Below, piece after piece: positions 17,012 to 64,000 of a DNA stretch of 64,000 nucleotides. How positions within the stretch are numbered: the first letter of the stretch is position 1; each line of letters begins with the position of its first letter. The DNA is from Gemmatimonadota bacterium. Lineage in GTDB: Bacteria; Gemmatimonadota; Gemmatimonadetes; Palauibacterales; Palauibacteraceae. The notes beneath the pieces were generated by a model. That model worked only from the letters and a program-made list of their open reading frames with translations, was not told where the DNA came from and made no database searches. The DNA is taken from positions 89,508 through 153,507 of the forward strand of contig JBDGXC010000002.1 of assembly GCA_039584815.1 (NCBI GenBank), in the 5' to 3' direction. Both the position numbers and the translations under genes were made by a program.

Positions 17012-17039
17012 CCCGCCCGCCCGATTCACCCCCGTGAGG

Positions 17040-17072
17040 TTGACGAAGCGGGCACATCGATTCATTATAATG
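17040..17072 (+). promoter_or_regulatory. sigma70-like promoter upstream of rpmE
   Basis: TTGACG at 17040-17045. TATAAT at 17066-17071 (CATTAT at 17063-17068 gives a 17-nt spacer). About 80 nt upstream of the rpmE ATG. Confidence 0.45.
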
Positions 17073-17153
17073 CGTTTAGCACCCTGCGTTCCCCGCACGG
17101 GAGGACGCAGGGCGCGTCTGTAGATATGAGTGGGTACCGAGGCGGAGCATACG

Positions 17154-22742: not shown

Positions 22743-22837
22743 AACCTTTGGAGAGCGGGAGAGTTTCAGGGTAACGGGTGGGTGGTCGCGCGCGAAGCGC
22801 GCCCGCCCGTCGAGGTGAAACCGTGGTGAGAGGGCCG

Positions 22838-24505: not shown

Positions 24506-24512
24506 TCCAGAC

Positions 24513-35252: not shown

Positions 35253-35298
35253 CGAGGGGAGGGGTCTCCCGCGCGGCAGACCCCCCGCGGGAGGTAGC

Positions 35299-40921: not shown

Positions 40922-41266
40922 ATGAAGGTGTTCGCGCCCGTCATGATCGGCCTGAGTTTTCTCCTCCTGGCAGCCCACTTCAGCCGGGCCGGGATGGAGA
41001 CGCTGGTATGGGCCAGTCTGGGGATGCCCTTCCTTCTGGCGGTCCGGCGGCCATGGTCCGGGTGGGTGCTTCGCGTGGCGCTCGCCCTCGGAGGAATCGA
41101 ATGGCTGCGGACGCTGTGGCGACTGGTGGCGGAGCGACGCGTGGCGGGCGAGCCGTGGGGTCGGCTCGCCTCGATTCTAGCGGCGGTGGCCCTCGTGACC
41201 TTCGTCGCGGCGTGGCTCGCCGGCCGCCACGGCCCTCGTCAGGTCGCGCCGGTAAAGCGGTCCTAG
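40922..41266 (+). CDS. small membrane protein (hypothetical)
   Basis: 114 aa with three or four hydrophobic helices. No RBS. Weak call. Confidence 0.3.
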   Translation: MKVFAPVMIGLSFLLLAAHFSRAGMETLVWASLGMPFLLAVRRPWSGWVLRVALALGGIEWLRTLWRLVAERRVAGEPWGRLASILAAVALVTFVAAWLAGRHGPRQVAPVKRS

Positions 41267-44079
41267 ATCGCCTCGATCAGACGAGCCATCCCACCCTCGA
41301 CGTCCCACCCCAGATGGGCATGTATCACCTTACGTCCGCCGTGCCGAAGGGTCTGGACGTCTCCGAGCGCCTGGGCACGCTGGAGTGTGCCCAGGCTGAC
41401 GTCCGACTCGGGGACATCGAGATCTTCCACCGGATCCGCCGTCAGAACGAAGTACAGTCCGTCCGCGCGTCCGCCCTTGTGCAGCTGCCCGGTCGAGTGG
41501 AGGTAGCGGGGTCCGTACCCGAACGTGGTGACCCGGCCGGTTCGCGCCTCCAGCCTCGCGCGCAGGCGCACGATCGCGTCGTCGCGTTCCGGTGTCGCGC
41601 CGAAGAAGCCGAGCACGGCCACGTACCCGATCTGCTCTCCGGACTCGAGCTGCTCCGACAGCGCCTCGGCCAGCGTCGTCTCACCCTGGTGCTCGGCGTC
41701 GCCATTCGTGAACAGGTAGAGGGGGCCAGTGCTTGCGCGGGCCTTACCGGTCGGGAAGCCTCCGGCCGTCGCACGCCGATCCAGGAGGTCAGCGGTCGCC
41801 CGCTTTGCGGCTGACACGTCCGGCTCGTCGAACGGGTTTACGCCGAGTATCGTCCCGGCGGTTGCCGTCGCGATCTCCCAGCGCAGGAACTCGCCGCCCA
41901 GGGCTTCGGGCTCCGGCAGGGCAAACCGAACGACGGGATGCCCGGCCTGTTCGAGTGCGTCCAGCGTCCCTTCGGTCGCGGCCACTTCTTCGCCGGCCAG
42001 GGAAATGCCCAGGAACACGCGATCCGGCTCGCACGCGGCGGGCGTTGGGAGCGCCGCGTGCGTGACGGGGAGAATCCCCACGCCATTCTTGCCGGTGCTC
42101 TCAGCCACCAGCTGCTCGATCCACAACGGAAACGTCGCCAGGGACGGAGAGGCCGCGATGGTGAGCATGTTTCGTCCCGCCCGGGCGAGCAGGGCGAGTC
42201 GTGCGCCCAGCCGAACGGCCGGATTCGCGGACTCGGGCAGGGCGGGCGAGCACTCGAGACTCATCTCGCGGGCCCAGCTGACGACCTTCCCGACGTCCGC
42301 TCCCATCAGGGCCATCGGAAGAAGCCCGAACGTTGTCAGAGCGGAATAGCGACCGCCCACGTCGGAAGGAGCTTGGAACACTCTACGGAAACCGGCTTCC
42401 TCCGCTTCCTGGAGGAGCGGCGATCCGCGATCCGTGATGGCCACGAAATGTCTCCCCGGAGCCGGAATTCGCTCGCTCGCCAGGCGCGCCGCGAAATACC
42501 GGTACAGGGTCATCGTCTCGATCGTGCTGCCGGACTTGCTCGCCACTACGAAAAGCGTGCGGAAGAAATCGATGTCCGCGTCCAGCCGGGCGACTGTGCC
42601 CGGATCCACGTCGTCGAGCACCCGCAGCTCAGGATAGCCGTTCGCCGCGGGAAGCGCGTCGCGCGCTACGAGCGGACACAGGCTACTGCCCCCCATCCCT
42701 ATCAGCACCACGTGCCGGACGCCTTCGGCGCGGACCTCGTCGGCCAGCGTGGCGAGCTCCGGAGCGAGACGCGACGCTTCTTCCGGACAACGGATCCATC
42801 CGAGGCGCTCCGCGATGGCTTCGCGCGTCGCCGCGTCTCCGTCCCACAGTGTCGGGTCACGACGGTGCAGGCGCTGCGCGAAGCGCTGCTCACGCAGCGC
42901 CACGAGTGCTCCGGGCAGTTCCGGCGGCTCGTAGATCGGTCCGCGTGATTCGACACCTGAAGCCTCGCGCATCGCGGCTCGACGCCCGGCGAGTCCATTC
43001 AACAGGGCGTCGAACGGATCGATGAACTTCTGCGCTCCTTCGGCGAGCAGCTGCGCGTGCACCGCTGCCATGTCGATGCCGACGGCCGCCAGACCGGCGA
43101 ACACCTGCTCCGCGTCATCGATATCGCGCTCCACCGCATCGGGCGCGATTCGGCCACTGGACGCGAACGCTTCGATCGTCACCTCGGGCATCGTGTTCAC
43201 GGTGTCACGGCCGACCAGGGGCTCGACATAGCGAACCGGGTCGTACAGCGGATTCTTCGTGCTCGTGCTGGCCCACAACAGTCGCTGCGGACGCGCCCCC
43301 GCCGCCGCAAGCGACTGCCATTCGGAGCTCGCGGACAGTGTGCGGAAGGCACGATACGCGAGCCGCGCGCTGGCCACGGCCGCCCGTCCGATCAGGTCCT
43401 GCGGAGCCGGCGTCGCAGGGGCGCCGATCCTGTGCGACAGGAGCCGGTCCACCATGACGTCGATGCGACTGAGGAAGAAGCTCGCGACCGAAGCCACAGC
43501 ATCGAGGCTCCGTCCGTCGGCCAGCCTTCGCTGAAGAGCGCGAACGTAGGCCCGGGCCACCGTCTCGTACGCCTCGACGGAGAACAGAAGCGTCACGTTC
43601 ACGTTGATGCCGTCGTACAGAAGTTCCTCGATGGCCGGTGCTCCGGCGGCAGTGCCCGGGATCTTGATCATGAGATTGGGCCGATCCACCGCGGCCCACA
43701 GGCGCCGTGCCTCCTCGACGGACCCGGACGTGTCGTGGATCAGGTGGGGCGACACCTCGAGGCTTACGTAGCCGTCGGCCCCTGCGGATGCTTCGTACAC
43801 GGAGTGCAACGCCTCGCACGCCTCGCGGATGTCGGTCACGACCAGAGTCTCGTACATCTCGCCGACCGCGGTCCCGACGCCAGCGAGCTCACGGATTTGC
43901 TCGTCGTAGTCCGAACCGGTCGAAATCGCCTTGTGGAAGATCGCCGGATTTGAGGTCACGCCCCTCAGGCCCTGCTCTCTCACCCGTCGCTCGAGGTCTC
44001 CCCCGCGGATCATGCCGCGAGTGAGATTGTCGAGCCAATAGCTCTGGCCGTGCTGGATCAGTTCCAGGAGGTTGTGCAT
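41263..44079 (-). CDS. bifunctional transaldolase / glucose-6-phosphate isomerase fusion
   Basis: N-terminal transaldolase (SYWLDNLTRG..TSNPAIF). C-terminal PGI (VVLIGMGGSSLCP, SKSGSTIET). 938 aa. Confidence 0.9.
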   Translation of the reverse strand: MHNLLELIQHGQSYWLDNLTRGMIRGGDLERRVREQGLRGVTSNPAIFHKAISTGSDYDEQIRELAGVGTAVGEMYETLVVTDIREACEALHSVYEASAGADGYVSLEVSPHLIHDTSGSVEEARRLWAAVDRPNLMIKIPGTAAGAPAIEELLYDGINVNVTLLFSVEAYETVARAYVRALQRRLADGRSLDAVASVASFFLSRIDVMVDRLLSHRIGAPATPAPQDLIGRAAVASARLAYRAFRTLSASSEWQSLAAAGARPQRLLWASTSTKNPLYDPVRYVEPLVGRDTVNTMPEVTIEAFASSGRIAPDAVERDIDDAEQVFAGLAAVGIDMAAVHAQLLAEGAQKFIDPFDALLNGLAGRRAAMREASGVESRGPIYEPPELPGALVALREQRFAQRLHRRDPTLWDGDAATREAIAERLGWIRCPEEASRLAPELATLADEVRAEGVRHVVLIGMGGSSLCPLVARDALPAANGYPELRVLDDVDPGTVARLDADIDFFRTLFVVASKSGSTIETMTLYRYFAARLASERIPAPGRHFVAITDRGSPLLQEAEEAGFRRVFQAPSDVGGRYSALTTFGLLPMALMGADVGKVVSWAREMSLECSPALPESANPAVRLGARLALLARAGRNMLTIAASPSLATFPLWIEQLVAESTGKNGVGILPVTHAALPTPAACEPDRVFLGISLAGEEVAATEGTLDALEQAGHPVVRFALPEPEALGGEFLRWEIATATAGTILGVNPFDEPDVSAAKRATADLLDRRATAGGFPTGKARASTGPLYLFTNGDAEHQGETTLAEALSEQLESGEQIGYVAVLGFFGATPERDDAIVRLRARLEARTGRVTTFGYGPRYLHSTGQLHKGGRADGLYFVLTADPVEDLDVPESDVSLGTLQRAQALGDVQTLRHGGRKVIHAHLGWDVEGGMARLIEAI

Positions 44080-44122: not shown

Positions 44123-44593
44123 TCAGTCGGAATTGCGCTGGGGTAGCATGTACTCTCGTTCGACGTCCAGCAGCTTGTTCAGGCGGCGTCGGTGGCGATC
44201 TTCATCGCTGAATCGAGCCCGCATGAACACGTCCGTGACCTGCAGCGCCACTTCGATTCCGATCACGCGCTCGCCGAGACACAGGACGTTGATGTCGTCG
44301 TGCTCCACCGCCTGACCCGAAGAGTATGTGTCGTGGCATACTCCGGCCCGCACACCGGGAATCTTGTTGGCCACCACGCTCACGCCCACGGCGCTGCCGC
44401 ACACGAGGACACCCCGCTCGACCTCGCCTTGCGCCACGGCTTCGGCGACCACCCGAGCGTAGTCTGGGTAGTCCACCGACTGTGGACCGTCGGTGCCGAG
44501 ATCCAGCACTTCGTGACCGGCGTCGCGCAGGGCGTCCGCCAGAATCCGCTTGTACCTGTACCCCGCGTGATCCGACCCGATCGCCACGCGCAT
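44123..44593 (-). CDS. rpiB: ribose-5-phosphate isomerase B
   Basis: [40 protein letters not shown]. The start overlaps the tkt stop (TGATG). Confidence 0.85.
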   Translation of the reverse strand: MRVAIGSDHAGYRYKRILADALRDAGHEVLDLGTDGPQSVDYPDYARVVAEAVAQGEVERGVLVCGSAVGVSVVANKIPGVRAGVCHDTYSSGQAVEHDDINVLCLGERVIGIEVALQVTDVFMRARFSDEDRHRRRLNKLLDVEREYMLPQRNSD

Positions 44594-46659
44594 CAGTTTT
44601 CCTCCAGAAGTCGTCGGGCGAGCGAGATCACGTTGTCGGCAGTGAAACCGTACCGTCGCCACAATTCCGCGGCCGGCGCGCTCGCACCGAACGTGGTCAC
44701 TCCCAGCACGTCGCCTCCGTCGCCTACCCATTCCCTCCATCCGAACGGGGCTCCAGCCTCGATGGCCAGCCGGCGCCGGATCGTCGGGGGCAGTACGTGG
44801 TCGCGGTAGGCTCGATCCTGCTCGCGGAACATCTCCCAGCTCGGCATGCTGACCACTCGCGTTCCGATCCCGAGAGCCTCCAGCGCCCCTCGCGCCTCGA
44901 GCGCGAGCGCGACCTCCGAGCCGGACGCGATGAGTATCAGATCGAGTTCCTCGCTCCCCGACTCCGCCAGGATGTACGCCCCCCTGTGAAGCCCGACGGC
45001 GGCCCCCGGTCCGCCGACCGCCAGAACGGGCACCTTCTGGCGGGTCAGCACGAGAATGGTCGGACCGGAGACACGGGAGATCGCCGCCTTCCAGGCCTCG
45101 ACCGTCTCGGCGGCGTCGGCTGGCCGGATGATGCACAGTCCGGGCACGGCTCGCAGGGCTGCCAGGTGCTCTATCGGCTGGTGGGTGGGGCCGTCCTCTC
45201 CCAGTCCGATGGAGTCGTGGGTCATCACGTAGATGACGGGCTGTCCCATCAGGGCGGCGAGGCGGATCGCGGGCCGCGCGTAGTCCGTGAAGACGAAGAA
45301 GGTCGCAGCGTACGGTCGAAGCCCCCCGTGCAGGGTCATGCCCGTGGTCGCCGCGCACATCGCGTGCTCCCGGATGCCCCAGCGCAGGTTCCGGCCCTCG
45401 TAGGACTCGCGCCCGAAGCTCGGGGATCCCTCGATCAGCGTGTTGTTCGAGGGAGACAGGTCGGCGCTCCCCCCGATGAGCCAGGGGATGCGATCCGCGA
45501 GCACGTTCAGGACGATCCCGGACGCCTGGCGCGTCGCCATCCCCCCGTTTGCCGGGTCGAAGGACGGAAGCCCGGCCTGCCAGTCCGCGGGTAGACGCCC
45601 CTCGATGGCCGCGTCCAGCTGCTCGGCCAGAACGGGCTGGTCCCGCCGGTAGCGCTCCATGTCCTCGCGCCAGGCCGCCTCGAGCTTCTCCCCTCGCTCG
45701 ACGGCCTCGCCCATGTGAGTCCGGGCGCGGTCCGGCACGAGAAACTGCGCGTCCTCGGGCCATCCGTAGACGCCCTTAGTCCGCCGGACTTCCTCCTCTC
45801 CGAGGGGCGAGCCGTGTGCCGCCGCGGTGTCTTGCTTGGCGGGGGAACCGAACCCGATGTGAGATCGGATGATGATGATGGAGGGTCTGGCCGCGTCCGA
45901 CCGGGCGGCTGACAGGGCCGATTCGATGGCGGCGACGTCGTTGGCCGCATCTCCGAGGCTCTGTACGTGCCACCCGTAGGCCGCGAAGCGCTGCTCGGGG
46001 TCGTCCGAGCACGTCAGCTCCGTCGAGCCGTCGATCGTGATCCGGTTGTCGTCAAATATCACGATGAGCTTGCCGAGGCCGAGGTGTCCCGCCACGGATG
46101 CAGCTTCGTGCGAGGCACCCTCCATCAAGTCGCCGTCGCTGCACAGCGCGTAGGTCCGGTGATCGATGATCGAGTGGCCGGGACGATTATAGACGGCGCT
46201 CAGGTGCGCTTCGGCGATGGCCATGCCGACCGCGTTCATGAGGCCCTGACCGAGCGGGCCGGTCGTCGTCTCGACCCCTGGCGTCAGGCCGTGCTCGGGG
46301 TGACCCGGTGTCCGGCTGTCCCACTGGCGGAAGGCGCGGATCTCGTCGAGGCTCAGATCGTATCCGCTGAGATGAAGCATGCCGTACAGCAGCATCGACG
46401 CGTGTCCCGCCGACAGCACGAACCGATCCCTGTCGAACCAGTCCGGGTTCTGCGGATTGTAGCGCATGTGGCGGCTCAGCACGTACGCTACCGGGGCCAG
46501 AGCCATCGGTGCCCCCGGATGGCCTGAATTCGCCCTCTGGATGGCGTCGATGGCCAACGTTCGGATGGTGTGGATGGACAGCTCTTCGAGCGACATGTCG
46601 CTCAGGGAGGCTTGGCTCCCGGCCTCCTCCATCCGGACGTCGGATGCGGGGGTCTCCAT
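44593..46659 (-). CDS. tkt: transketolase
   Basis: TPP motifs ([32 protein letters not shown]). Full-length pyrimidine and C-terminal domains. Alternative starts at 46596 and 46632; the listed ORF start at 46869 adds a low-complexity leader. Confidence 0.93.
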
Positions 46660-46988
46660 GCCTCTCGTCTTTCCTCTTTCGCGGGGGCTCGAAACGGTTT
46701 GCGCCGGTCTCGGGTCGCTCGACGCCCCCACATTATCACGGGGAAGAAGTGTGCGCACCTTCGCCCGCTCGGCCGGGCCTCCCGGCCCCGGCTTCGGTCC
46801 GGTAAGTTCCGGTACCCGCGTGGAACCACCCACACGGAGACATGAAGAGCGGAGGGGAGCACGCGGCATCCCTCAGCCCCGCGACATGACCCCGTTTGCG
46901 ACCCACGAGCGGTATCTCGACATTGACTTCAGGCGAAGCCGCGGACGACTTCTCGAGTCGTGCCGCCCGACCGGACATCGAACACGTG

Positions 46989-52990: not shown

Positions 52991-55420
52991 GTGAGCCATC
53001 CGGAGTCGAGCCGGTCGGCCGAGGTCCATGCGCTGGAGATCCTGGAGTTTCCGAGAGTGCTGGAAAGGATCGCCGGCCTGGCGGTTTCGGAGCCCGGCCG
53101 CCGTGCGGTAAGAGAGCTGCGTCCGTGGCGTGAGCTGGACACGGTGCACGAAGCCCTGGCGACGACGGACGAGATGGTGGGGATGCTCCTTCGGTACGAA
53201 GACTGGGCCCCCCCGCCGATCCCGGACGCCGGCCGAATCCTCCGCAGACTGGCCCCCGAAGGCTCCATCCTCGACGTCGACCAGTTGCCGGACATCCTGG
53301 GACTTCTGCGGGCCTCAAGGCTGGTACGCGGCGACCTGCGCCGACTCCCCGACGATCTGCCGAGACTGGCGGCCCTGGGTGACCGGATGGTGCGCCTCGA
53401 GAAACTGGAGGCGCGCCTGGATCGCTCACTGAAGCCGGCGGGTGGCCTGGCCGACGCCGCTTCTCCGGAGCTGGCCAGGACGCGGCGGTCTCTGCGGGAA
53501 GCCAGGTCCTCGATCGTCAGACGGCTCGAGCAGTTCATCCGGCGGCTGCCCGAGCGGCTGCGTGTCCTCGATGCCTCGGTGACGATCCGGGCAGGTCGCT
53601 ATTGCGTGCCCGTGCGCCGGGAGGCCATGTCGCAGGTCGGGGGCATCGTCCACGATGAGTCGGCCACGCACCGTACCCTGTTCGTCGAACCCCCCGAAGC
53701 GATCGAGCCGATGAATCGCATCGCGGAGCTCGAGAGGGAGGAACACCGTGAGACGCTCAAGGTTCTCCGGGATCTGACCGATCTCCTGCGGCCGCACGGG
53801 GAGGCCGTGACACGCAGTGCCGCGGCGCTGGCCGAGGCTGATTCTCTCTATGCGCGGGCCCGCTACGCGCTGCGCCACGGGGGCGCCCCACCCGAGGTCC
53901 GGGCCATGGAAGCCGGGGGTGAGTGGCCGGGGTACCGGGCCGTACAGGCCCAGCACCCGCTGCTCGAGGTCACGGGTGAGCCGGTCGTTCCGTTCGACCT
54001 GGACGTCGGGCCTGAGGAGCGCGTCCTGCTGATCAGCGGACCGAATGCCGGTGGAAAGACGGTCCTTCTCAAAGCGGTCGGCCTCCTCTCAGCCATGGCC
54101 CAGGCCGGGATCGTTCCCCCGATCGGTCGCGGGAGCCGGTTCCCCCTGTTCCGCTCTTTCTTCGCCCTGATCGGCGACGAGCAATCGATCCAGGCCTCCC
54201 TGTCCACGTTCAGCGCGCAGGTGGAGGGCCTGCGGGTGATCCTGGCCGAAGCCGAAGCCACGTCGCTCGTCCTGATCGATGAAGTAGGCGGCAGCACCGA
54301 TCCGGCCGAAGGGGCGGCCCTTGCGGCGGCGGTCCTGTTGCGGCTCGCCGGGCAGGCGGGCCTTTCCGTCGCGACGACCCACCTTGGCGAGCTCAAGGAT
54401 CTTGCCGCACACGAGAGCGCGGTAGTGAACGCTTCGCTGCAGTTCGACACACGGGCGCTCCGCCCCACGTTCCGTCTGGTGCGCGATCGCCCGGGTCGCA
54501 GCTACGCGCTCGAGATCGCGCATCGTCTGGGACTCCCGGAGGATGTCCTACGAGTGGCCCGTTCCCGACTGTCGGATGCGATTCTGCGAGTGGACGGTCT
54601 GCTCCAGGAGCTCGAGGAGCGCGAGGTCGAAATGGACCGACTCACAACCGAAGCCCGGGTATCGGCCCGCCGGAGCCGCCGGCACGAGGAGCTGCTCGCG
54701 GAGTCGACGAACCGGCTGGCTCGCCGGGAAGAGGAGATCGAACGGGAAGCTCGCGCGAGGGTCGAACGGTACCTGCTGGAGGCACGTCGGGATGTCGAGA
54801 CCGAGGTGGAGCGACTCCGGTCGGAGGTCGCCCGAGCCGTGCAGGCCGGTGAGGCGGACCCCGGCGCGTTCGACGATGCCGTGCGGCAGGCTCGGTCCGC
54901 GGTCGAGGAGCGATTGCGCGAGGCCCGGAAACGACCGCACGCGCCGGAAGGTCTGGCCGAGCCCGTTCGCCTGGACCTGAGCCCGGGACTCCGGGTGCGC
55001 TCGCGTTCCCTCGGCGTGGAGGGTGAAGTGCTGGAGGTCAGGGAGGGCGAGGCCGTGATCGAGGCCGGCGGCCTCCGCTTCAATCTGGATCCGGCAGACC
55101 TGCAGGCCGGCGGCGCGCCCTCCGGGAATCGGCTGTCCGACGGGGTTCCCGCGGCGCCTTTCCCGGAGCTCGCGCCCGCCACCGAGGTCAATCTTCGAGG
55201 CCTCCGGGTGGACGAAGTGGAGGCAACGCTCGGCCCGGCGCTCGACGCCGCGTTCGTACACGACGTTCCGAGCCTGAGAGTCATCCACGGTAAGGGAACC
55301 GGTGCCTTGCGCGAGGAAGTCTCCCGCATTCTGGGTGCCGACCGCAGGGTGCGAGCGTTCCGTCCCGGAGGTTTCCATGAGGGGGGGTCGGGAGTTACCG
55401 TAGTCGAGTTCGAAGGATGA
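52991..55420 (+). CDS. mutS2: endonuclease MutS2
   Basis: Walker A GPNAGGKT, DE motif LVLIDEVGGSTDP, coiled-coil region, and C-terminal Smr domain (LRVIHGKGTGALREEV). GTG start inferred. Confidence 0.9.
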   Translation: MSHPESSRSAEVHALEILEFPRVLERIAGLAVSEPGRRAVRELRPWRELDTVHEALATTDEMVGMLLRYEDWAPPPIPDAGRILRRLAPEGSILDVDQLPDILGLLRASRLVRGDLRRLPDDLPRLAALGDRMVRLEKLEARLDRSLKPAGGLADAASPELARTRRSLREARSSIVRRLEQFIRRLPERLRVLDASVTIRAGRYCVPVRREAMSQVGGIVHDESATHRTLFVEPPEAIEPMNRIAELEREEHRETLKVLRDLTDLLRPHGEAVTRSAAALAEADSLYARARYALRHGGAPPEVRAMEAGGEWPGYRAVQAQHPLLEVTGEPVVPFDLDVGPEERVLLISGPNAGGKTVLLKAVGLLSAMAQAGIVPPIGRGSRFPLFRSFFALIGDEQSIQASLSTFSAQVEGLRVILAEAEATSLVLIDEVGGSTDPAEGAALAAAVLLRLAGQAGLSVATTHLGELKDLAAHESAVVNASLQFDTRALRPTFRLVRDRPGRSYALEIAHRLGLPEDVLRVARSRLSDAILRVDGLLQELEEREVEMDRLTTEARVSARRSRRHEELLAESTNRLARREEEIEREARARVERYLLEARRDVETEVERLRSEVARAVQAGEADPGAFDDAVRQARSAVEERLREARKRPHAPEGLAEPVRLDLSPGLRVRSRSLGVEGEVLEVREGEAVIEAGGLRFNLDPADLQAGGAPSGNRLSDGVPAAPFPELAPATEVNLRGLRVDEVEATLGPALDAAFVHDVPSLRVIHGKGTGALREEVSRILGADRRVRAFRPGGFHEGGSGVTVVEFEG

Positions 55421-55495
55421 TAGCACTGAACGGAGGCCGAGCGAGAGATTGAGGAGTGCCGCGCCACCCTCCCACCAAGTGGGCAGCGGTCCCCG

Positions 55496-57298
55496 ATGGT
55501 GAGTGACACGCTCGTTCAGGATATCCGGGAGCGCGCCGAGATCCTGGAAATTTGCGGCGAATTCGTCCGCCTGAAGCGCTCCGGCAAGACATATCGAGGC
55601 CCCTGTCCCCTGCATGGCGGAGAGGGGCCGAACTTTTCTGTGGATCCCACGCGGGGGATCTTCAAGTGCTTCGTGTGCGGGGAGGGCGGTGACGTCTTCT
55701 CGTTCCTCATGAAGCATCTCGGAGTCGATTTTCCCACTGCGGTGCGCCAGGTGGCCGCCCGCCTGGGCGTCGAGGTGCCGGACGAGAGCGAGACACGCGA
55801 GGACCCGTGGGCGCACCTCCGCGAAGTCGTGGCGTTCGCGGAGGAGTGGTTTCGAGGCCTGCTTCTGGATGAGGACAGCGGCGCGACCGCGCGCCGGTAT
55901 CTCACGGAGCGCGGGATCGATCCGACGGCGGCGGAAGAGCTCGGCCTCGGCTACGCGCCCGAAGGCTGGCGACGATTGCGGGAGGCGGCGGTAGCGCGCG
56001 GCATCCCGGACGAACACCTGCTTGAGGCCGGTCTCCTGGCCACGAGCGACCGGGCGGAGGAGCCGTACGACCGGTTCCGCGGTCGGCTGATGTTCTCCAT
56101 CCGCGATCTGAGAGACCGCCCGATGGCATTTGGCGGGCGCGTCCTGGGTGGATCGGACGACCAGGCGCCCAAGTACATCAACTCTCCCGAGACACCCATC
56201 TTCAGGAAGAGTCGAACGCTGTACGGATTGAACCGGGCGCGTCATGCGATGCGGCGGGAAGGCCGTGGCCTGGTGGCCGAAGGGTACATGGATGTCCTCG
56301 CGATGCATATGGGGGGGTTTCCGGCGACCGTCGCGCCGCTCGGCACGGCGCTCACCGGGGAACAGGCGGACCTGCTCCACCGGTATGCCACACGCGTCTA
56401 TCTGCTGTACGACAGTGACGAGGCCGGTCTCCGCGCTACGTTCAGGGCGGCCGATGCGCTGCTGGCCGTGGGATGCCATCCCATGGTGGTGACGTTCCCC
56501 GCCGGGGAGGATCCGGCCTCGGTTATCGAATCAGAAGGATCCGACGGATTGCGACAGTACCTGGCTGACGCGATCGACGTTCTCGAGCGCAAGCTCCAGA
56601 TCCTCGAACGGAAGGGATACCTGGACACCATAGAGGGACGTCGCCGGGCTGTCGACGGCCTGCTGAGCACGCTGCGCTCGGTGAAGGACCCGGCCCTGCT
56701 GGACATCTACCTCGGTCGGGCGGCGGAGCGGACCGGGGTGCGGCGCGAGACGCTCGTGAGCGAAGTGGCCAGGGAACGCGCGATGCGGAGGCCGCACCGC
56801 CCACGAGACGTGGGTCGAGGAGCGAAGAGCCTCGAAGGGAGTGAGCCCGGCGGGCAACGAGATGCCGCGGGTGCGGCGGAGCAGACGTTGCTGCTTCTGC
56901 TGGCCAGGGACCGGGCGCTCGTAGACGTGGCGGTGGAGGTGGGGCTGGAGGCCGGGCACTTTCGGGATCCGACTCGGAGTCGCATCTATGACGCCCTCGT
57001 GCTGGCGGACGAGGAGGAGCCCGAACTGGACGAGCGAGCCTCGGAGCAGTGGGAACTGCTCCGTGCAGACAGTACGGAGCTCGTCCACCCTCGCGAGGCG
57101 TTCCGGGAAACGGTCCGGGGGATTGTACACCAGGCCCGGCTGGATCGGCTCGTGCAGATCGACCGGGAGCTGGAGCTGGCCGACGAAGCCCAGGCCAGGC
57201 AGTTGCTGATCGAAAAGGAACAGGTCGCCCGGGAACTGAGAAAAGCGGGCGTGCCGCTGAGCTTCGTTCGGCGGTACTCGGAGACGACACCGGCCTGA
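55496..57298 (+). CDS. dnaG: DNA primase
   Basis: Zn-ribbon CPLHGGEGPNFSVDPTRGIFKCFVCGEGG. RNA polymerase domain. TOPRIM (EGYMDV..LYDSDEAG). Confidence 0.95.
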   Translation: MVSDTLVQDIRERAEILEICGEFVRLKRSGKTYRGPCPLHGGEGPNFSVDPTRGIFKCFVCGEGGDVFSFLMKHLGVDFPTAVRQVAARLGVEVPDESETREDPWAHLREVVAFAEEWFRGLLLDEDSGATARRYLTERGIDPTAAEELGLGYAPEGWRRLREAAVARGIPDEHLLEAGLLATSDRAEEPYDRFRGRLMFSIRDLRDRPMAFGGRVLGGSDDQAPKYINSPETPIFRKSRTLYGLNRARHAMRREGRGLVAEGYMDVLAMHMGGFPATVAPLGTALTGEQADLLHRYATRVYLLYDSDEAGLRATFRAADALLAVGCHPMVVTFPAGEDPASVIESEGSDGLRQYLADAIDVLERKLQILERKGYLDTIEGRRRAVDGLLSTLRSVKDPALLDIYLGRAAERTGVRRETLVSEVARERAMRRPHRPRDVGRGAKSLEGSEPGGQRDAAGAAEQTLLLLLARDRALVDVAVEVGLEAGHFRDPTRSRIYDALVLADEEEPELDERASEQWELLRADSTELVHPREAFRETVRGIVHQARLDRLVQIDRELELADEAQARQLLIEKEQVARELRKAGVPLSFVRRYSETTPA

Positions 57299-57335
57299 GG
57301 CCCGAGGGGCCGTCAGGCCAACACACGGAGATCGT

Positions 57336-58043
57336 ATGAAGGGAGACACGCTGGATAGCCTCCGCGTCCTGCAGGAGATCGACGCGACCATCGCCGAGAG
57401 GAGGACCAGGCTGAGAGCGCTGGAGGCGGAGCACGCACAGCTGTCCGAGGAGCTCGCGGCTCTCGAGGGCCGGACCGACGGACTCCGATCCCGGATGGAG
57501 CAGGCCGAGGTCGATCTCCGGCAAGCGGAGCGCACTGTGCAGGCCGGCCGCGAGACTCTGAAGCGATTGCAGGGCCGGGCCCAGGAGGTTCACAACATGC
57601 GGGAGCACCTGGCGGCACGCACCGAGGTGGACGCGTCACGCCAGAACCTGGAGATCGCGGAGGACCAGCTCCTGGAAGCCATGCAGGAGCAGGAATCGGC
57701 GCGCTCCGCCATGTCCGACCTTCAGGGCGACATCGCCAGCCGAGGCGAAGAGTACGGGGAGCGCATGCGGGAGCTGGACGCCGAGCGTGATCGACTGGAG
57801 GAAGAGATCGCGGTGCAGATAGACAAACGCTCCAATCGGGCGCTTCGCCTGGACGCGGGTGCCCGAAGCCTGTACGACACGGTGCGGGGGGGGCGGGCGG
57901 ATAGCCCTCTGGCGCCGCTCGTTGACGGCGTATGTGGCCATTGCTTCACGGCGATTCCCCTTCAGACGCAGCAGGTGATCCGGTCGGGCAGGACTCTGGT
58001 CGTGTGCGAGACGTGCGGTGTCATCCTGCACGTCGCCGAGTGA
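57336..58043 (+). CDS. C4-type zinc-ribbon / coiled-coil protein (COG1579, DUF164 family)
   Basis: Long coiled coil followed by CGHC..CETCG at the C terminus. Confidence 0.7.
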   Translation: MKGDTLDSLRVLQEIDATIAERRTRLRALEAEHAQLSEELAALEGRTDGLRSRMEQAEVDLRQAERTVQAGRETLKRLQGRAQEVHNMREHLAARTEVDASRQNLEIAEDQLLEAMQEQESARSAMSDLQGDIASRGEEYGERMRELDAERDRLEEEIAVQIDKRSNRALRLDAGARSLYDTVRGGRADSPLAPLVDGVCGHCFTAIPLQTQQVIRSGRTLVVCETCGVILHVAE

Positions 58044-58137
58044 GACCGGACTCCGCTCTTTCGCGGCCGGCCGCTCGCGTTCCGAGCCGGCGTTTGGCTC
58101 CGTGAACCGCGCGGGAGGAACGTCGCGACGCTGGATC

Positions 58138-59829
58138 ATGCCGCTCCCGGTTCCGGATGGACGGGTCGACGGACTCGCCGGGTCGCTCGGCCTCCCGCCC
58201 GATGTGTGTCGCATCCTGATCCGCCGGGGCGTGGACTCCACCGAAGAGGCGCGCTCATTCCTGCGCCCTCATCTCTCGGGCCTGCGGTCGCCCGCCGATC
58301 TTCCGGATCTCGGGCCGGCCGTGGAGCGAATCGAGGCGGCAATCCTCGCGGGTGAGACCATCCTCGTCCACGGGGACTACGACGCGGATGGCATGTCGGC
58401 GGCAGCCCTGTTGACCCTGGGCCTGAGTGAGCTCGGAGGACGCGTGGAGGCCTTCGTGCCGCACCGGACGCGAGATGGATACGATCTCTCCGAGGCCGGA
58501 CTCGAGCGGGCCACCGAGTCGGGAGCCTCCCTGATCGTGACGGCCGATTGTGGTGTCACGGCGGTGTCTGCGGTGCAGAAGGCGGCCACGTCTGGGATCG
58601 ATGTCGTGGTGACGGACCATCACCGCCCCGGGAAACGGCTGCCCGATGCGGTCGCGCTCGTGAACCCGCTGCGGGCGGACAGCTCGTACGGCTTTCATGG
58701 ATTGGCGGGAGTCGGGGTGGCGTTCAAGGTTCTCGCGGCCCTGTACGAGCGATCGACCATCGCGGCGCCGCTGCTGAACCAGCACCTGGATCTCGTCGCG
58801 ATCGGTACCGTGGCCGATCAGATGCCGTTGACGGACGAGAACCGGATTCTCGTGCGGGCCGGCCTGCGGGCGCTGGAACGAACCCGCAAGCCGGGGCTAC
58901 GGGCCCTGCTCTCGCACGCGGGTGTGGACGGAGACAAGGGAATCCACGCCCAACAGATATCGTTTCGCATCGCACCGCGGCTGAACTCGGTGGGACGAAT
59001 GGCGGAAGCGGACGCGGGCCTCGAGCTCCTGCTCACGCGAGATCCGGTAGCCGCCGAGAGGCTCGCCGCGCACCTCGAACGCCAGAACGCGCAGCGCCGG
59101 CAGACCGACAGCCAGGTGTTCGAAGAGGTCAGGCAGCAGCTGCGCTCCAGGTTCCGGGACGACGATCGAGCAGTCGTGCTGTGGGGAGACGGCTGGCATC
59201 CGGGCGTCATCGGGATCGTAGCTTCCCGTCTCGTGGAACGTCTGCACCGACCGTCCGTGGTCATCGCGTTTGACGGGGACGTGGGGCGGGGGTCGGGCCG
59301 GTCCATCGAGGGCTTCCACCTGTTCGAGGCACTCCGGGAGTGCGAGTCGCTTCTCGATCGGTTCGGCGGACACCGCCTCGCCGCGGGTCTGACGGTTCGC
59401 CGTGACCGGGTCGAGGAACTGGCGGATCGTCTGCGACAGGTAGCGGAGAGGGAGCTCCGGGATCGAGAGCCGATCGACGAGTTGCGCCTCGATCTGGAGA
59501 TCTCCCTCGATCGGGTGAACCCCGATCTCCTGCGCTGGCTCGATCACCTCGGTCCCTTCGGTCAGGGCAACCCCCCGCCGGTACTCATGGTGCGCCGGGT
59601 ACATCTGGATCGACCGGGCAGAGTAGGAAGCGATGGCGCGCACCTTCGAGTGGCACTGTCGCGGGGGGAGGACCGGGTACCGGCCATCGGCTTCGGCCTG
59701 GGACGTCGTCTGCAGGAGGCTCGCTCCATGAGCCACGCCGACGTGGCGATCGAGCTGGCCGAGAATCGGTGGAACGGCCGTGCCGAGCTGCAGGCCCGGG
59801 TCCTGGATTTTCGCCCGACCGAGCCGTGA
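58138..59829 (+). CDS. recJ: single-stranded-DNA-specific exonuclease RecJ
   Basis: DHH motifs (ILVHGDYDADGMSAAALL, TADCGV, VTDHH) and the DHHA1 domain. Confidence 0.9.
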   Translation: MPLPVPDGRVDGLAGSLGLPPDVCRILIRRGVDSTEEARSFLRPHLSGLRSPADLPDLGPAVERIEAAILAGETILVHGDYDADGMSAAALLTLGLSELGGRVEAFVPHRTRDGYDLSEAGLERATESGASLIVTADCGVTAVSAVQKAATSGIDVVVTDHHRPGKRLPDAVALVNPLRADSSYGFHGLAGVGVAFKVLAALYERSTIAAPLLNQHLDLVAIGTVADQMPLTDENRILVRAGLRALERTRKPGLRALLSHAGVDGDKGIHAQQISFRIAPRLNSVGRMAEADAGLELLLTRDPVAAERLAAHLERQNAQRRQTDSQVFEEVRQQLRSRFRDDDRAVVLWGDGWHPGVIGIVASRLVERLHRPSVVIAFDGDVGRGSGRSIEGFHLFEALRECESLLDRFGGHRLAAGLTVRRDRVEELADRLRQVAERELRDREPIDELRLDLEISLDRVNPDLLRWLDHLGPFGQGNPPPVLMVRRVHLDRPGRVGSDGAHLRVALSRGEDRVPAIGFGLGRRLQEARSMSHADVAIELAENRWNGRAELQARVLDFRPTEP

Positions 59830-60380
59830 GCCTGCGGATCATCGCTGGCGATCTGGGAGGCCGCCGCATCAAGACACCGCGCGGTACGGCCACCCGTCCT
59901 ACGCGGGAGGCTGTACGCGAAGCGTGGTTCAGCAGTCTGTCGCCGCGGCTCCCTGACAGCCGTGTCCTGGATCTGTTCGCGGGCTCGGGCGCGCTCGGCA
60001 TCGAGGCGCTGTCCCGAGGAGCGGCCTGGGTGACCTTCGTGGAGGCGGACCAGCGCGTGTGCGATGTGCTGAGGTCGAACGTAAGCACGCTCGGCGTAGA
60101 GGAACGCTGTGAGGTACGGCGGGCCGATGCCGTCCGCGTGGCCGAGAGGCTGGCGCGCGAAGGCGTGCGGGAGTGGGACATCGTGCTCTCGGACCCGCCG
60201 TACGGGGGAGACGAGGCGATGCAGATCGTGGCGGCCTTCGGTCGCTTCGCGTACGCGCGTATCCTGTGTGTGGAGCACGCCCCGGATACGGACCTTCCCG
60301 GTGATCCGGTGTGGAACCGGACGTACGGGGACACGGCCCTGTCCTTCTTCGTGGATCCGATGGAAGGAGTGTCGGCATGA
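59826..60380 (+). CDS. rsmD: 16S rRNA (guanine966-N2)-methyltransferase RsmD
   Basis: GTGA overlap. TRPT..VREA..LDLFAGSGALGIEALSRGA..DPPY. Confidence 0.8.
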   Translation: MSLRIIAGDLGGRRIKTPRGTATRPTREAVREAWFSSLSPRLPDSRVLDLFAGSGALGIEALSRGAAWVTFVEADQRVCDVLRSNVSTLGVEERCEVRRADAVRVAERLAREGVREWDIVLSDPPYGGDEAMQIVAAFGRFAYARILCVEHAPDTDLPGDPVWNRTYGDTALSFFVDPMEGVSA

Positions 60381-60886
60381 GTGAGCAACGGATCGCCATC
60401 TACCCTGGTTCGTTCGATCCCCTAACGCTGGGGCATGACGATATCGTGCAGCGGAGCCTCAAGCTCGTGGACCTGGTGATCGTAGCGATCGCCGCGACGG
60501 CTACGCACACCAAGGAAGCCACGTTCACGGTGGAGCAGAGGGTAGCCCTGGGGCGGGAGACTTATGCGAATCAGGGGCGTGTGGAGGTGGTTCCGTTCGA
60601 CGGTCTTCTCGTTGATCTGGCGCGGGAACTTGGATCACGGCTCATCGTCCGCGGTCTGCGCGCCGTGAGCGACTTCGAGTACGAGTTCCAGATGGCTCTC
60701 ATGAATCGGACTCTGTCACCCGAGATCGAGGTGATCTTCATGGCTCCGGCCAGCAATTTCACCTTTCTGAGCTCCTCGCTGGTACGGGAGGTGGCCCGGC
60801 TCGGCGGCGACGTTTCGGGCTTCGTGCCGGCTCCCGTGCTGCGAGAGCTGATCCGGGTCTACGGTCCGGCCGCCGGCGGACAGTGA
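60377..60886 (+). CDS. coaD: phosphopantetheine adenylyltransferase
   Basis: ATGA overlap. IAIYPGSFDPLTLGHDDIV (HxGH). Confidence 0.9.
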   Translation: MSEQRIAIYPGSFDPLTLGHDDIVQRSLKLVDLVIVAIAATATHTKEATFTVEQRVALGRETYANQGRVEVVPFDGLLVDLARELGSRLIVRGLRAVSDFEYEFQMALMNRTLSPEIEVIFMAPASNFTFLSSSLVREVARLGGDVSGFVPAPVLRELIRVYGPAAGGQ

Positions 60887-61848
60887 GCTTCGTCGATTCC
60901 CTGCGTGAGCGCGCCGCACGGATCGGCGGGCGAATCGGCTTCCCGGAAGCCGGTGAGCCCCGAACCGCGGAGGCCATCCTTCGCCTGGCCCGGGAGGGAG
61001 CGGTGCGACCGGTCGTGGTCGGCGACGCCGTGGGCGATCCGGGGCCCGAAGTGGAGATCGTGGATTCGGCCGCACCCGAGTTCCGGGACCTGGTCGCGGA
61101 TTTGCTGACGGAAGCGTCAACCCCGGGACCGGTGGACGCGCTGCGTTTCGCGGTGGCCCTGCTTCGCGACGAACACCTGGACGGCGTCGTAGCCGGGGCC
61201 CGGAGCTCGACAGCCGAGGTCCTGCGAACGGGCCTGAACCTCCTCGGAGCAGCCCCCGGAACCGACACGGTATCCAGCTCTTTCTATATGGTCGTACGAC
61301 GGGAGCCCGATGAAACCGAGTCCGTGCTCACGTTCACCGACGCTGCCGTGGTGCTGCGACCGGGGCCCGAGCAATTGGCCGCGATCGCTCAGGAGGCCTG
61401 CCAGGCCCGCCGTCTGATCGTCGGCGACGAGCCCCGCGTCGCCTTCCTCTCGTACTCCACGCACGGGTCGGCGGACGGCGAGTCGGTCCGGCGCGCGAGG
61501 GAGGCTCTGAGGCTGTTTCGGGAGCGCCAGCCCGATATACTCAGTGACGGAGAGCTGCAGGTCGATGCGGCTCTGGTCTCCGAGGTGGCGGCGCGCAAGG
61601 CACCGGGCTCACCGCTCGCGGGACGGGCGAACGTTCTGGTGTTTCCGGACCTGGACGCGGGCAACATCGGGTACAAGCTCGTGCACCGCCTGGCGGGCGC
61701 GCGCGCTCTCGGGCCGATTCTTCAGGGACTCGATCGTCCGCTGAACGACCTATCGCGCGGAGCGTCCGTCGATGACATCGTTCACGTGGCGTATATCACG
61801 GCCCTGTTGGCGGGCCGGTCGCGCACGCAGGGTTCTGCATTCATTTGA
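60883..61848 (+). CDS. phosphate acetyl/butyryltransferase (PTA_PTB family)
   Basis: GTGA overlap. PTA_PTB fold blocks (VAFLSYSTHGS, LVFPDLDAGNIGYKL, DLSRGASVDDIVHVAYITAL). 321 aa. Confidence 0.75.
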   Translation: MSFVDSLRERAARIGGRIGFPEAGEPRTAEAILRLAREGAVRPVVVGDAVGDPGPEVEIVDSAAPEFRDLVADLLTEASTPGPVDALRFAVALLRDEHLDGVVAGARSSTAEVLRTGLNLLGAAPGTDTVSSSFYMVVRREPDETESVLTFTDAAVVLRPGPEQLAAIAQEACQARRLIVGDEPRVAFLSYSTHGSADGESVRRAREALRLFRERQPDILSDGELQVDAALVSEVAARKAPGSPLAGRANVLVFPDLDAGNIGYKLVHRLAGARALGPILQGLDRPLNDLSRGASVDDIVHVAYITALLAGRSRTQGSAFI

Positions 61849-61861
61849 GACAGAGGCCACC

Positions 61862-62191
61862 ATGTTCTCCATCGCCGAGATGAACGGCATCACGATCGTG
61901 GAAGTGGACGGGGAGTTGATCGTGGGCAACCGGAAGGAGCTCAAGGACACGGTCCTGCACAGGCTCGACGCGGGCGATCGCCGGTTCCTCATCGATTTCA
62001 CGACCTCCAGCTACATCGACTCCAGTGGCCTAGGGGTCCTGGTAAGCCTGTCGAAGAAGATCCGGGAAGCCGGGGGCATGCTGCGCCTGGCGGGCCTGAA
62101 CGAGGATCTCCGGACGCTGTTCGAGCTCACGAAACTGGACACGTTGTTTCAGATCGCCGACACGCGGTCCCGCGCCCTGAGTGATTTCTGA
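61862..62191 (+). CDS. STAS-domain anti-sigma-factor antagonist
   Basis: SpoIIAA/RsbV-like (LVGNRKELKDTV..LIDFTTSSYIDSSGLGVLVSL..LRLAGLNEDLRTLFELTKLD). Conserved phosphorylatable Ser in DSSGLG. Confidence 0.8.
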   Translation: MFSIAEMNGITIVEVDGELIVGNRKELKDTVLHRLDAGDRRFLIDFTTSSYIDSSGLGVLVSLSKKIREAGGMLRLAGLNEDLRTLFELTKLDTLFQIADTRSRALSDF

Positions 62192-62198
62192 CCCGGTA

Positions 62199-64000
62199 AT
62201 GCCAACCGACAGCGCTCTCATCTGCTCTCACCGGCCGCGGGTGACGGACGATCTCCTGCGAGAGCTCGCGGCAATCGATGCCCGGGCCACCGTCTCGCGG
62301 TCGCCGCGCGACTGGCCGTCGGACCCACCGGGGATCGCCTTCATGGACCTTGCCGACGAGGACCAACCCGTCCGCGAGGCGCGGCTGGCCTTCGGACGAT
62401 CCACCGAGCTCATCGCGATCGTGGACAACGAGTCGGTCGACCGCCTCGTTCCCGCACTGGCGGCAGGGTGCGCCGACTACCTGTTCTTTCCCCTCAATGC
62501 AGACGAACTGGGCCTGAAGTGGAAGCGCCACCTCGCCGGCGAGGGCGGTACCGGGGCGCGACGGCCGGAGGGACTCGCGGGCCGACTCGACCTGGTGTTT
62601 CCATCCGAGGTCGAGTTCGTGCGCGAGGTCGTGGCAGAGGTCGTGGATGCTTGCGAGCGACTCGCATTCTCGGGTTCGAGGGCCACGCTCAACCTGCGGG
62701 TAGCGGTGGGAGAGGCTCTGTCGAACGCCATCCTGTACGGCAATCGCGAGGATCCCGATAAGGCGGTGCGCGTGTCCGCCCTGCTGCGACCGGGGTCGGC
62801 CGAAGTGACGGTCACAGATGAAGGGGCCGGGTTCAATCCGGGTGCGGTCGCGGACCCGACACAGCCGGGGAACAGAGGTCGCAGTCACGGCCGCGGCCTT
62901 TTTCTGCTACGGTCCCTGACCGACGACGTGAGGTTCAACGAGCGAGGCAACTCGGTTACGCTGACTTTGCGGATCGACACCGTGGAAACGGATTCCCGGG
63001 ACGCCGACCTTACGCCGTCCGATTCGCTTCCTTCCGGCGAGCTCCCGGACGCGGCGGAGGCCAGGCCGTTCCGGAGCGAGCGGATCGAGGAGTACCTCGA
63101 GAGCTTCCACCGTGTCACGGGTCTTCGCTTTCGACTGGCGGCCGAGGGCCCCGCCGGATCGGCGGTGCTCCACGACTCTCTGGCTGACACGGATCAGGGA
63201 ACGGTCGGGGAGACCAGCTGGGCGGTCATGCCCGGTCTCCGCCTGCGGCTCGGAACGGCGCCGGACCCGACGGTCGATGGGCTGACGATCGACCTGCTTC
63301 GCGAGTCAGCGAGCCGCCTGGTTGCGTCGGAGCGGGAGGCCAGGTTCTTCGCGGGCGAGCTGTCGGAACGGTACGAGGAGATCGAGTTGCTGACCTCGGC
63401 CGGAGAGACGCTGGGCTCGATCATCCACCTCGAGCGGGCTGCGAGCCGCCTGCTGGAACGACTGGCGAACGTTCTGGAGGCCGATGTCGCAGCCGTCTGG
63501 GTTCCCGATGAAGGGGCTCCCGACGGGTTCCGGAGGCTGGCGATCGGGGGAGAGGGAGAGGCGGATCACGGGTTGGCAGAAGCGGGATTCGAGACTGCGC
63601 ACACCGACACCGTGCTTCGAACGCAGGTACCACGCGTGCGGAAGGGCCGCGATGAGGCCATCGAGACCTCGGATCGGACGTTCCTCGCCGTGCCTCTTCG
63701 CCACTCGGCGCTACACGGCAGCTCCCGCGCGGTGGGAGTTTTGGGGGCGCGTGGTCGTCGGGGGCGGGACACCTTCGCACAGGGTGACGTCAACCTGGCG
63801 GCGACAGTGGCATCGCACCTCGCGGCGGCCATCGAGAACGACCGGCTGGTACGAGAGAGCCTCGTCCAGGAGCGGATGCTCGTGGAGCTGGAACTGGCGC
63901 ACCACCTGCAGATGAAGCTGCTTCCGGATCTCGGTGACTTCGCGGGAATCGCGGACGTCGCCGCCCGGTGCGAGCCGGCCGAGTCGGTCGGAGGGGACTT
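62199..64000 (+). CDS. multidomain partner-switching regulator (REC-like / RsbW-like Ser kinase HATPase / GAF / PP2C phosphatase), OsaC-like; 3' end off window
   Basis: Frame-0 reading from the ATG at 62199 is open to position 64000 with no stop, which is why it is missing from the ORF track. HATPase N-box (GEALSNAILYG), G1 (VTDEGAGFNP) and G2 (GRGLFLLRSL). GAF-like region. The start of the SpoIIE/PP2C domain (LQMKLLP..ARCEPAESVGGD). Confidence 0.7.
   Translation, partial: MPTDSALICSHRPRVTDDLLRELAAIDARATVSRSPRDWPSDPPGIAFMDLADEDQPVREARLAFGRSTELIAIVDNESVDRLVPALAAGCADYLFFPLNADELGLKWKRHLAGEGGTGARRPEGLAGRLDLVFPSEVEFVREVVAEVVDACERLAFSGSRATLNLRVAVGEALSNAILYGNREDPDKAVRVSALLRPGSAEVTVTDEGAGFNPGAVADPTQPGNRGRSHGRGLFLLRSLTDDVRFNERGNSVTLTLRIDTVETDSRDADLTPSDSLPSGELPDAAEARPFRSERIEEYLESFHRVTGLRFRLAAEGPAGSAVLHDSLADTDQGTVGETSWAVMPGLRLRLGTAPDPTVDGLTIDLLRESASRLVASEREARFFAGELSERYEEIELLTSAGETLGSIIHLERAASRLLERLANVLEADVAAVWVPDEGAPDGFRRLAIGGEGEADHGLAEAGFETAHTDTVLRTQVPRVRKGRDEAIETSDRTFLAVPLRHSALHGSSRAVGVLGARGRRGRDTFAQGDVNLAATVASHLAAAIENDRLVRESLVQERMLVELELAHHLQMKLLPDLGDFAGIADVAARCEPAESVGGD

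Follow-up and report, generated by a model that had tools for sequence, protein, structure and literature searches.

Can a single bacterial polypeptide both add and remove the phosphate on an anti-sigma-factor antagonist, and if so, what does such a protein control? The question is raised by a gene at the edge of a 64,000-nucleotide stretch of DNA, here called the window (positions 89,508 to 153,507 on the forward strand of contig JBDGXC010000002.1, GenBank assembly GCA_039584815.1), from a bacterium of the family Palauibacteraceae, phylum Gemmatimonadota. The gene starts at window position 62199, immediately after a gene for a STAS-domain protein, and an initial annotation made from the letters alone proposed that it fuses an RsbW-type kinase to a PP2C/SpoIIE-type phosphatase. 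Partner-switching modules are a main bacterial route from stress signals to changes in gene expression, and the Gemmatimonadota are a phylum widespread in soil and sea with few cultured members. To our knowledge nothing is known of partner-switching modules in this phylum, and a literature search combining Gemmatimonadetes with anti-sigma factor antagonist found no papers on such modules. We find that the two opposing enzyme domains do occur in one protein beside a STAS gene, and that the fusion is a real and recurrent state, though a minority one among its relatives.

Is the gene genuine, and how long is it? Translation of 62199-64000 (+ strand) from the ATG at 62199-62201 yields 600 sense codons, no stop and 2 bases over. 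The initial annotation had the frame open for more than 600 codons; open it is, with no in-frame stop anywhere between these positions, but the number of codons in the window is exactly 600. Because the frame runs past the end of the window, the gene is absent from the list of open reading frames (ORFs), and 62199-64000 holds the first 600 codons of a gene for a 795-residue protein. The full length comes from a near-identical protein, P0001 (795 residues, one residue different from the window protein in a protein search), which is encoded at locus L001 on contig JBDHDF010000040.1 of assembly GCA_039591675.1; this contig has 99.8% DNA identity to window positions 54583-64000, and extension past the window edge by this route leads to a protein ending in a complete PP2C domain. 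At the other end, 7 nucleotides separate the stop codon of the STAS gene (TGA, 62189-62191) from the ATG, an in-frame TGA at 62178-62180 shuts the frame upstream, and the gene might instead start at an in-frame GTG at 62181. Composition agrees with the homology searches: the G+C fraction is 0.80 at third codon positions (GC3) versus 0.50 at second positions (GC2), a coding signature in a genome of 67% G+C, and with this pattern and dozens of homologues, 62199-64000 is not a chance ORF.

What enzymes does the gene encode? Residues 128-258 (62580-62972, + strand) make up an RsbW/SpoIIAB-type serine kinase/anti-sigma domain of the Bergerat (GHKL) class. The Pfam model HATPase_c_2 matches residues 134-256 (E 5e-26, 91.6 bits, cut-off 27.4), and sequences in the PDB that match the domain are those of SpoIIAB, RsbW and LvrC. 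In alignment A1, which comprises 12 full-length fused homologues (protein clusters) at 37-74% identity, the N box residues E172 and N176, the G1 box D207-E-G-x-G211 and the G2 box G231-R-G233 are invariant or nearly so, and across 78 sequences the residues of these boxes are at least 90% conserved. The kinase-type HATPase with N, G1 and G2 boxes that had been read from the letters is therefore borne out.

The phosphatase lies mostly beyond the window. Its domain spans residues 587-795, of which about 14 (residues 587-600, 63957-64000, + strand) are encoded in the window, the last being the first metal-binding aspartate in VGGD600. Because so little of the domain is inside the window, the SpoIIE model finds no match in the 600-residue window fragment, and the PP2C assignment draws on the near-identical contig and on homologues. 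In P0001, SpoIIE (PF07228) matches residues 608-795 (E 2.7e-38, 132 bits, cut-off 25), so that what had been read as the opening of a PP2C/SpoIIE phosphatase is indeed the start of a complete domain. Its metal-binding aspartates are conserved in alignment A1, namely D600 (VGGD), D618 (GDVSSHG), D738 (FTDG) and D787/D788 (ADDRT), and Foldseek, a structure search, matches the domain to the phosphatase domains of Rv1364c, RssB, SiaA and SpoIIE. To judge from these residues, neither enzyme domain looks degenerate. Kinase and phosphatase thus share one polypeptide encoded directly downstream of the STAS gene, as the Pfam matches and P0001 together confirm.

The presumptive substrate of both domains is the 109-residue product of that upstream gene (61862-62191, + strand), which is an anti-sigma-factor-antagonist type of STAS protein. 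The assignment, which agrees with the initial annotation, comes from Pfam (PF01740, E 1e-21, 77 bits), from NCBIfam (TIGR00377, 67.1 bits, above the cut-off of 53.45), from a sequence motif and from conserved gene order. The serine of the motif D-S-x-G-L-G is the phosphorylated residue in the family of RsbV, SpoIIAA and TM1442. Here the motif reads YIDSSGLG, aligned with the motifs in RsbV (YMDSTGLG) and TM1442 (YMDSAGLG), and Ser54, encoded by the codon at 62021-62023, is the predicted phospho-acceptor. Compared with the window copies, the STAS proteins of 78 loci (L002-L085) have a median identity of 70.6%, the kinase domains 48% and the PP2C domains 51.6%.

What, then, might tell the two enzyme domains which way to push? 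The chain begins with residues 1-112 (62199-62534, + strand), which adopt the (beta-alpha)5 CheY-like fold of a receiver (REC) domain. This assignment is made by structure because Pfam searches with the isolated segment are empty: residues 1-131 alone give no family at E<=10, Response_reg included. An hhalign comparison of the N-terminal alignment with Escherichia coli CheY spans 37 columns at 12.7% probability and served only to map Lys109 to Phe97 and Pro110 to Pro98. The pocket aspartate at the end of beta3, Asp50, stands at the acceptor position and is invariant. The other pocket residues have been replaced: the CheY acidic pair Asp12/Asp13 after beta1 is Ser10-x-Arg12, Thr87 after beta4 is Val75, and Lys109 is Phe97 (Phe or Tyr in the family), followed by an invariant Pro98 at the cis-proline position. 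The domain is a degenerate receiver whose phosphorylation pocket is largely lost, much as the initial annotation had suspected, and because only the beta3 aspartate of the pocket is kept, we refer to it as a pseudo-receiver; from its sequence, we infer that it is not phosphorylated.

Between the kinase and the phosphatase lies more than the single GAF domain that had been noticed at first. In the full-length AlphaFold2 model (predicted local distance difference test score (pLDDT) 87.6, predicted template modelling score (pTM) 0.56), the kinase is followed by a disordered linker (residues 261-287, 62979-63059, + strand; pLDDT <50) that is poorly conserved in alignment A1 and contains gaps there. 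In the 12 split loci compared with it, where kinase and phosphatase are separate genes, the kinase stop and the phosphatase start fall at this same linker. Next comes a small domain of one helix and four strands (residues 294-353, 63078-63257, + strand), which is modelled confidently and aligns (alignment A4) with the N terminus of 11 split phosphatases from several Gemmatimonadota lineages, down to 23-28% identity. A profile of this small domain retrieves no credible relative from the PDB sequences or Pfam, and residues 260-406 (at E<=10) and 260-410 have no Pfam match at all, a PAS domain not being detected. In other words, the protein has an unassigned alpha/beta domain and a disordered linker in addition to the four domains first proposed, and the alpha/beta domain may be one for sensing or dimerisation that has yet to be described.

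A 47-residue helix (residues 361-407, 63279-63419, + strand, from the model) then leads into the GAF sensor domain (residues 411-527, 63429-63779, + strand), which has an alpha/beta fold in the model and is recognised in Pfam by GAF_3 at residues 416-547 (E 9e-10, 39.5 bits versus a cut-off of 27) and by the GAF model (E 1e-7, 32.9 bits versus 22.4). The GAF domain after the kinase had been correctly spotted. From it, a 46-residue linker helix (residues 528-573, 63780-63917, + strand) carries the motif LAHHLQMKLLP, nearly invariant in alignment A1, toward the phosphatase. Helical linkers of this type, from GAF domain to phosphatase, have been described for RsbU-like PPM phosphatases (PMC12143880), and the joining of sensor and PP2C by long helices in our model agrees with the linker mechanism set out there. 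When the full-length model is compared with solved structures by Foldseek, the matches are LvrC, the RsbU-RsbW domains of Rv1364c, Pseudomonas aeruginosa RssB, SiaA, SpoIIE and SpoIIAB.

How widespread is this protein, and is it always fused? When one genome per GTDB species was scanned, at least 568 relatives turned up; the 80 that matched best were examined, and all of these are from Gemmatimonadota except one contig labelled Akkermansiaceae. That contig (L007, CAXMRU010000183.1, 126 kb) carries a pta-STAS-fusion locus with 79-85% amino-acid identity to the window proteins, and from such similarity it is probably mis-binned. Among 82 non-redundant loci, the STAS gene lies directly upstream in 78, and at least two of the remaining four (L048 and L053) end at a contig edge. 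Adjacency of the STAS gene and conservation of the module across the sampled Gemmatimonadota are thus plain observations. Of the 80 loci that have both parts, 22 carry kinase and phosphatase as a single uninterrupted ORF and 58 as two genes. A Gemmatimonas sp. metagenome-assembled genome (MAG) locus, L050, suggests that cultured Gemmatimonas may carry the split form. Thirty-nine loci have the N-terminal domain (21 fused, 18 split) and 39 lack it (1 fused, 38 split); fusion therefore goes with the pseudo-receiver (21/39 versus 1/39 loci), in a count not corrected for shared ancestry. Stand-alone proteins of about 260 residues consisting of a pseudo-receiver and HATPase_c_2 form >200 clusters. 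One further locus, L002 (5210-5310, on the contig of L009), has the first ~35 codons of the pseudo-receiver out of frame, so that its kinase is called at 228 residues; this frame break is probably an indel error and not a true truncation.

The split loci show where the two halves meet. Split kinase genes end in TLTLRE followed by the stop codon, and the phosphatase starts 1-4 nucleotides on or overlaps the stop, an arrangement that suggests translational coupling and one functional unit. At the same junction the window reads through (TLTLRIDTVETDS), and the fusion thus amounts to the in-frame loss of a stop codon within a region that the model predicts to be disordered. In a neighbour-joining tree of the C-terminal half, fused forms are the deep branches and split forms are nested within them; we do not rely on this tree for the direction of change, fusion or fission, because it is unbootstrapped and midpoint-rooted.

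The surroundings of the module are those of a housekeeping region. The gene order is dnaG, a Zn-ribbon protein, recJ, rsmD, coaD, pta, STAS, kinase/phosphatase, rsmA (ksgA) and a rex-like gene, and divergent Gemmatimonadota contigs, one of them the complete chromosome CP070823.1, share this order from dnaG to the rex-like gene (L001-L005). In all loci examined from the phylum, the module lies between pta and rsmA. The genes recJ, rsmD, coaD and pta run on one strand with overlaps or short gaps, and pta (phosphate acetyltransferase, 60883-61848, + strand; PTA_PTB E 1e-87) ends 13 nucleotides before the STAS start. A tblastn search detects pta upstream in the majority of the 80 genome loci. In CP070823.1 (L003, 5419-5664), pta is an 81-residue remnant next to an intact STAS gene and an intact fused gene; the module is therefore independent of an intact pta neighbour.

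How might these parts work together? We favour a partner switch, in which the RsbW-type domain (residues 128-258) would phosphorylate STAS Ser54 with ATP and the Mn/Mg-dependent PP2C domain (residues 587-795) would take the phosphate off again, so that a single polypeptide would set the phosphorylation state of its neighbour. The small alpha/beta domain and the GAF domain would set the balance, the phosphatase being wired to them by long helices as in proteins of the RsbU/RsbP/RsbZ type, and the pseudo-receiver would sit on the kinase side and, by analogy with LvrC, probably act through protein contacts and not through aspartyl phosphorylation. As output, the least certain step, unphosphorylated STAS protein would displace from the kinase domain a sigma factor encoded elsewhere. 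The domains, their intact catalytic motifs and the phospho-site motif of the STAS protein are what we observe; enzymatic activities, direction of regulation, signal and sigma factor output are what we infer from them. For the whole of this scheme, sequestration of an unlinked sigma factor by the kinase domain included, we see about an even chance, and the sigma factor output is favoured by analogy with RsbV/RsbW, CrsA/CrsR, HsbR and OsaC-SigB.

Several results weigh against the partner switch as just described. No sigma factor gene is found among the larger annotated ORFs of the 64-kb window (about 40 of the 51 called), and the 10 kb downstream on L001 yielded none either. An extracytoplasmic function (ECF) or SigB-like sigma factor had been suggested as a gene to look for downstream, and on L001 rsmA and the rex-like gene follow in its place; in four other gene-called loci, too, the immediate neighbours of the module are the same housekeeping genes. 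The NCBIfam models for RsbW and SpoIIAB score the kinase domain weakly and below threshold (33-34 bits versus equivalog cut-offs of 135-155), so that by sequence the domain is a relative, and not an orthologue, of RsbW or SpoIIAB. The pTM of 0.56 leaves the inter-domain geometry of the model uncertain. Lastly, the higher conservation of the STAS protein hints at further binding partners, with the STAS protein itself as the output. This last point leads to a rival in which the chemistry at Ser54 is the same, as in the SypA and HsbA systems, but the STAS protein, as its phosphorylation changes, binds some other target, not necessarily a sigma factor, and the kinase sequesters none. Such an arrangement has precedents in SypE/SypA (PMC10120452) and in HsbA, which engages FlgM or HsbD according to its phosphorylation state (PMC6482189); it would also suit a STAS protein far more conserved than both its enzymes across 78 loci, the lack of a sigma factor near the locus wherever neighbours were examined, and the position of the module in a conserved string from recJ, rsmD, coaD and pta to rsmA, to which the target could relate. 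Yet the nearest characterised relatives of the kinase (SpoIIAB, RsbW and, putatively, LvrC) all bind sigma factors, a 109-residue protein that must fit two active sites may be highly conserved for that reason too, and the housekeeping synteny may be mere conserved gene order; we regard STAS as output as possible but somewhat doubtful. A bolder variant, which we consider unlikely, makes the module a core Gemmatimonadota regulator with a non-sigma output: a metabolite sensed by the GAF domain would switch a STAS protein controlling a housekeeping process, candidates being the acetyl-phosphate and coenzyme A (CoA) metabolism of pta/coaD or the ribosome maturation of rsmA/rsmD, while the pseudo-receiver and the alpha/beta domain would add new parts to the regulatory repertoire, and the switch would be tuned by repeated joining and separation of the two enzymes.

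Two further rivals question the enzyme itself. If one of its domains did not work, the kinase serving just for binding or the PP2C domain acting as no more than an adaptor like E. coli RssB, the protein would be a one-way regulator. Pseudo-enzymes are common in the superfamily, and the protein's own N-terminal receiver is already degenerate, but E172, N176, D207-x-G-x-G211 and G231-x-G233 are invariant or nearly so down to 37% identity, the four metal-binding aspartate positions of the PP2C domain are likewise kept, and so is the phospho-serine motif of the STAS protein, all of which makes a non-working domain very unlikely. Might the fusion instead be an artefact, a sequencing or assembly error having removed the stop between two genes? 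Most relatives are indeed split (58 of 80 loci, and the >200 clusters of stand-alone ~260-residue kinases), and a stop codon with 1-4 nucleotides is all that the split junction contains. Against this stand the same uninterrupted gene in the independent assembly GCA_039591675.1, fused genes in 22 species-level genomes (the complete chromosome CP070823.1 among them), and 12 fused protein clusters at 37-74% identity that align through the junction; at 50% identity the fused proteins still form at least five clusters in which the N-terminal domain is present and four that lack it, and two of the fused clusters have no GAF domain. A lost stop is barely credible as an explanation, and on the strength of the independent assembly and the 22 fused species-level loci we reject it.

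With the partner switch as the preferred reading, how new is such a protein? The initial annotation likened the architecture to OsaC of Streptomyces coelicolor, which modulates SigB after osmotic stress. The comparison is apt for domain order, as judged from Pfam coordinates and the model: in OsaC (kinase-PAS-GAF-PP2C) as here, the kinase is on the N-terminal side, a sensor region with GAF is in the middle and PP2C is at the C terminus. The 2009 paper on OsaC reportedly describes two GAF domains, where the window protein has one. Unlike OsaC, the window protein, which belongs to another phylum, carries an N-terminal pseudo-receiver in addition and has the small alpha/beta domain instead of a PAS domain that Pfam could detect; a STAS gene directly adjoins its own gene and it has no known sigma factor, whereas the kinase domain of OsaC binds the sigma factor SigB (PMC10117811; PMC12143880).

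Precedents closer than OsaC, or equally close, are SypE, HsbR/CrsR, Rv1364c and LvrC, and the novelty implied at first was overstated. SypE of Vibrio fischeri likewise combines an RsbW-like kinase, a receiver fold and a C-terminal PP2C domain in one chain with a separate STAS protein; in the order kinase-REC-PP2C, it sets the phosphorylation of a conserved serine in the ~105-residue STAS protein SypA (PMC10120452), which acts downstream of SypE. Unlike the pseudo-receiver, which is N-terminal and without catalytic residues, the SypE receiver is central, canonical and phosphorylated, with RscS upstream, and SypE has no GAF domain. HsbR of P. aeruginosa and CrsR of Shewanella oneidensis also have a receiver, a PP2C domain and an RsbW-type domain in one protein; they phosphorylate and dephosphorylate a STAS antagonist (HsbA or CrsA) and bind RpoS, which is encoded elsewhere (PMC6482189). 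Their order is REC-PP2C-kinase, unlike the order found here of pseudo-receiver, kinase, small domain, GAF and PP2C; they have no GAF domain, and their receiver is phosphorylated through HptB, whereas the pocket here lacks the acidic pair, the threonine and the lysine. In other words, the canonical phosphorylatable receiver switch of the SypE, HsbR and CrsR type does not apply to the window protein, and the GAF domain is instead the likely signal input.

Each half of the protein also has relatives of its own. LvrC (SenB) of Leptospira (PDB 9qih), the best solved match to the N-terminal half, likewise has a receiver fold followed by an RsbW-like Bergerat domain, an architecture shared by the stand-alone ~260-residue kinases found in split relatives. 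In LvrC the receiver is canonical and is phosphorylated by LvrB (PMC13269768), and, unlike the window protein, LvrC has no fused phosphatase and no described STAS partner. Rv1364c of Mycobacterium tuberculosis (PDB 3ke6) resembles the window protein in having kinase and phosphatase in one chain, and Foldseek matches both domains (E 3e-13); it differs in its order (PAS-PP2C-kinase-STAS), with the PP2C domain before the kinase, a fused STAS domain, a PAS sensor and no receiver fold. As in RsbZ of Clostridioides difficile and in RsbU/RsbP, a long helix connects the sensor of the window protein to a PPM phosphatase, and in those proteins this helix is predicted to transmit the signal (PMC12143880). 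The phosphatases of the split relatives are GAF-PP2C proteins of the RsbZ type; RsbZ-type phosphatases are separate from the kinase, unlike the covalently joined domains here.

The rest of the window is a housekeeping region, with RF1/prmC, obg, hrcA-dnaJ, pentose-phosphate and glycogen genes, mutS2, dnaG and [NiFe]-hydrogenase and hyp genes, and Rfam and tRNA scans of the whole window returned no matches. The [NiFe]-hydrogenase operon (6114-9651, + strand) encodes a small subunit, a large subunit and a cytochrome b, and after it come hypF and hypD, two maturation genes (11657-15908, + strand), a set that suggests, by gene content, hydrogen oxidation in this Gemmatimonadota genome. One 938-residue ORF (41263-44079, - strand) joins transaldolase (residues 14-361) to phosphoglucose isomerase (residues 453-665), and transketolase adjoins it (44593-46869, - strand). 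Additionally, there are two paralogous CtpB-like S41 peptidases in tandem, which have PDZ domains and are 575 and 566 residues long (22778-26213, + strand), a 435-residue VKOR and DsbA/thioredoxin-like protein (35227-36534, + strand), and a 378-residue ORF (16031-17167, - strand) with coding-like composition and no Pfam match at E<=1e-5, which may be no real gene, as it partially overlaps a + strand ORF at 17130-17477.

The concept of opposing kinase and phosphatase activities in one protein, directed at a neighbouring or cognate STAS protein, is already established from Vibrio, Pseudomonas, Shewanella, Streptomyces and Mycobacterium, and the value of the present example is incremental, not conceptual. 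What distinguishes it is the pseudo-receiver, the unassigned domain, the coexistence of fused and split forms, the setting in a housekeeping operon, and a STAS protein more conserved than the enzymes that would act on it. For the Gemmatimonadota, the locus offers one conserved module at a single locus. It also offers a receiver fold whose phosphorylation pocket has been lost and, in its natural series of split and fused forms, a test of how a switch is affected when its opposing kinase and phosphatase are covalently coupled.

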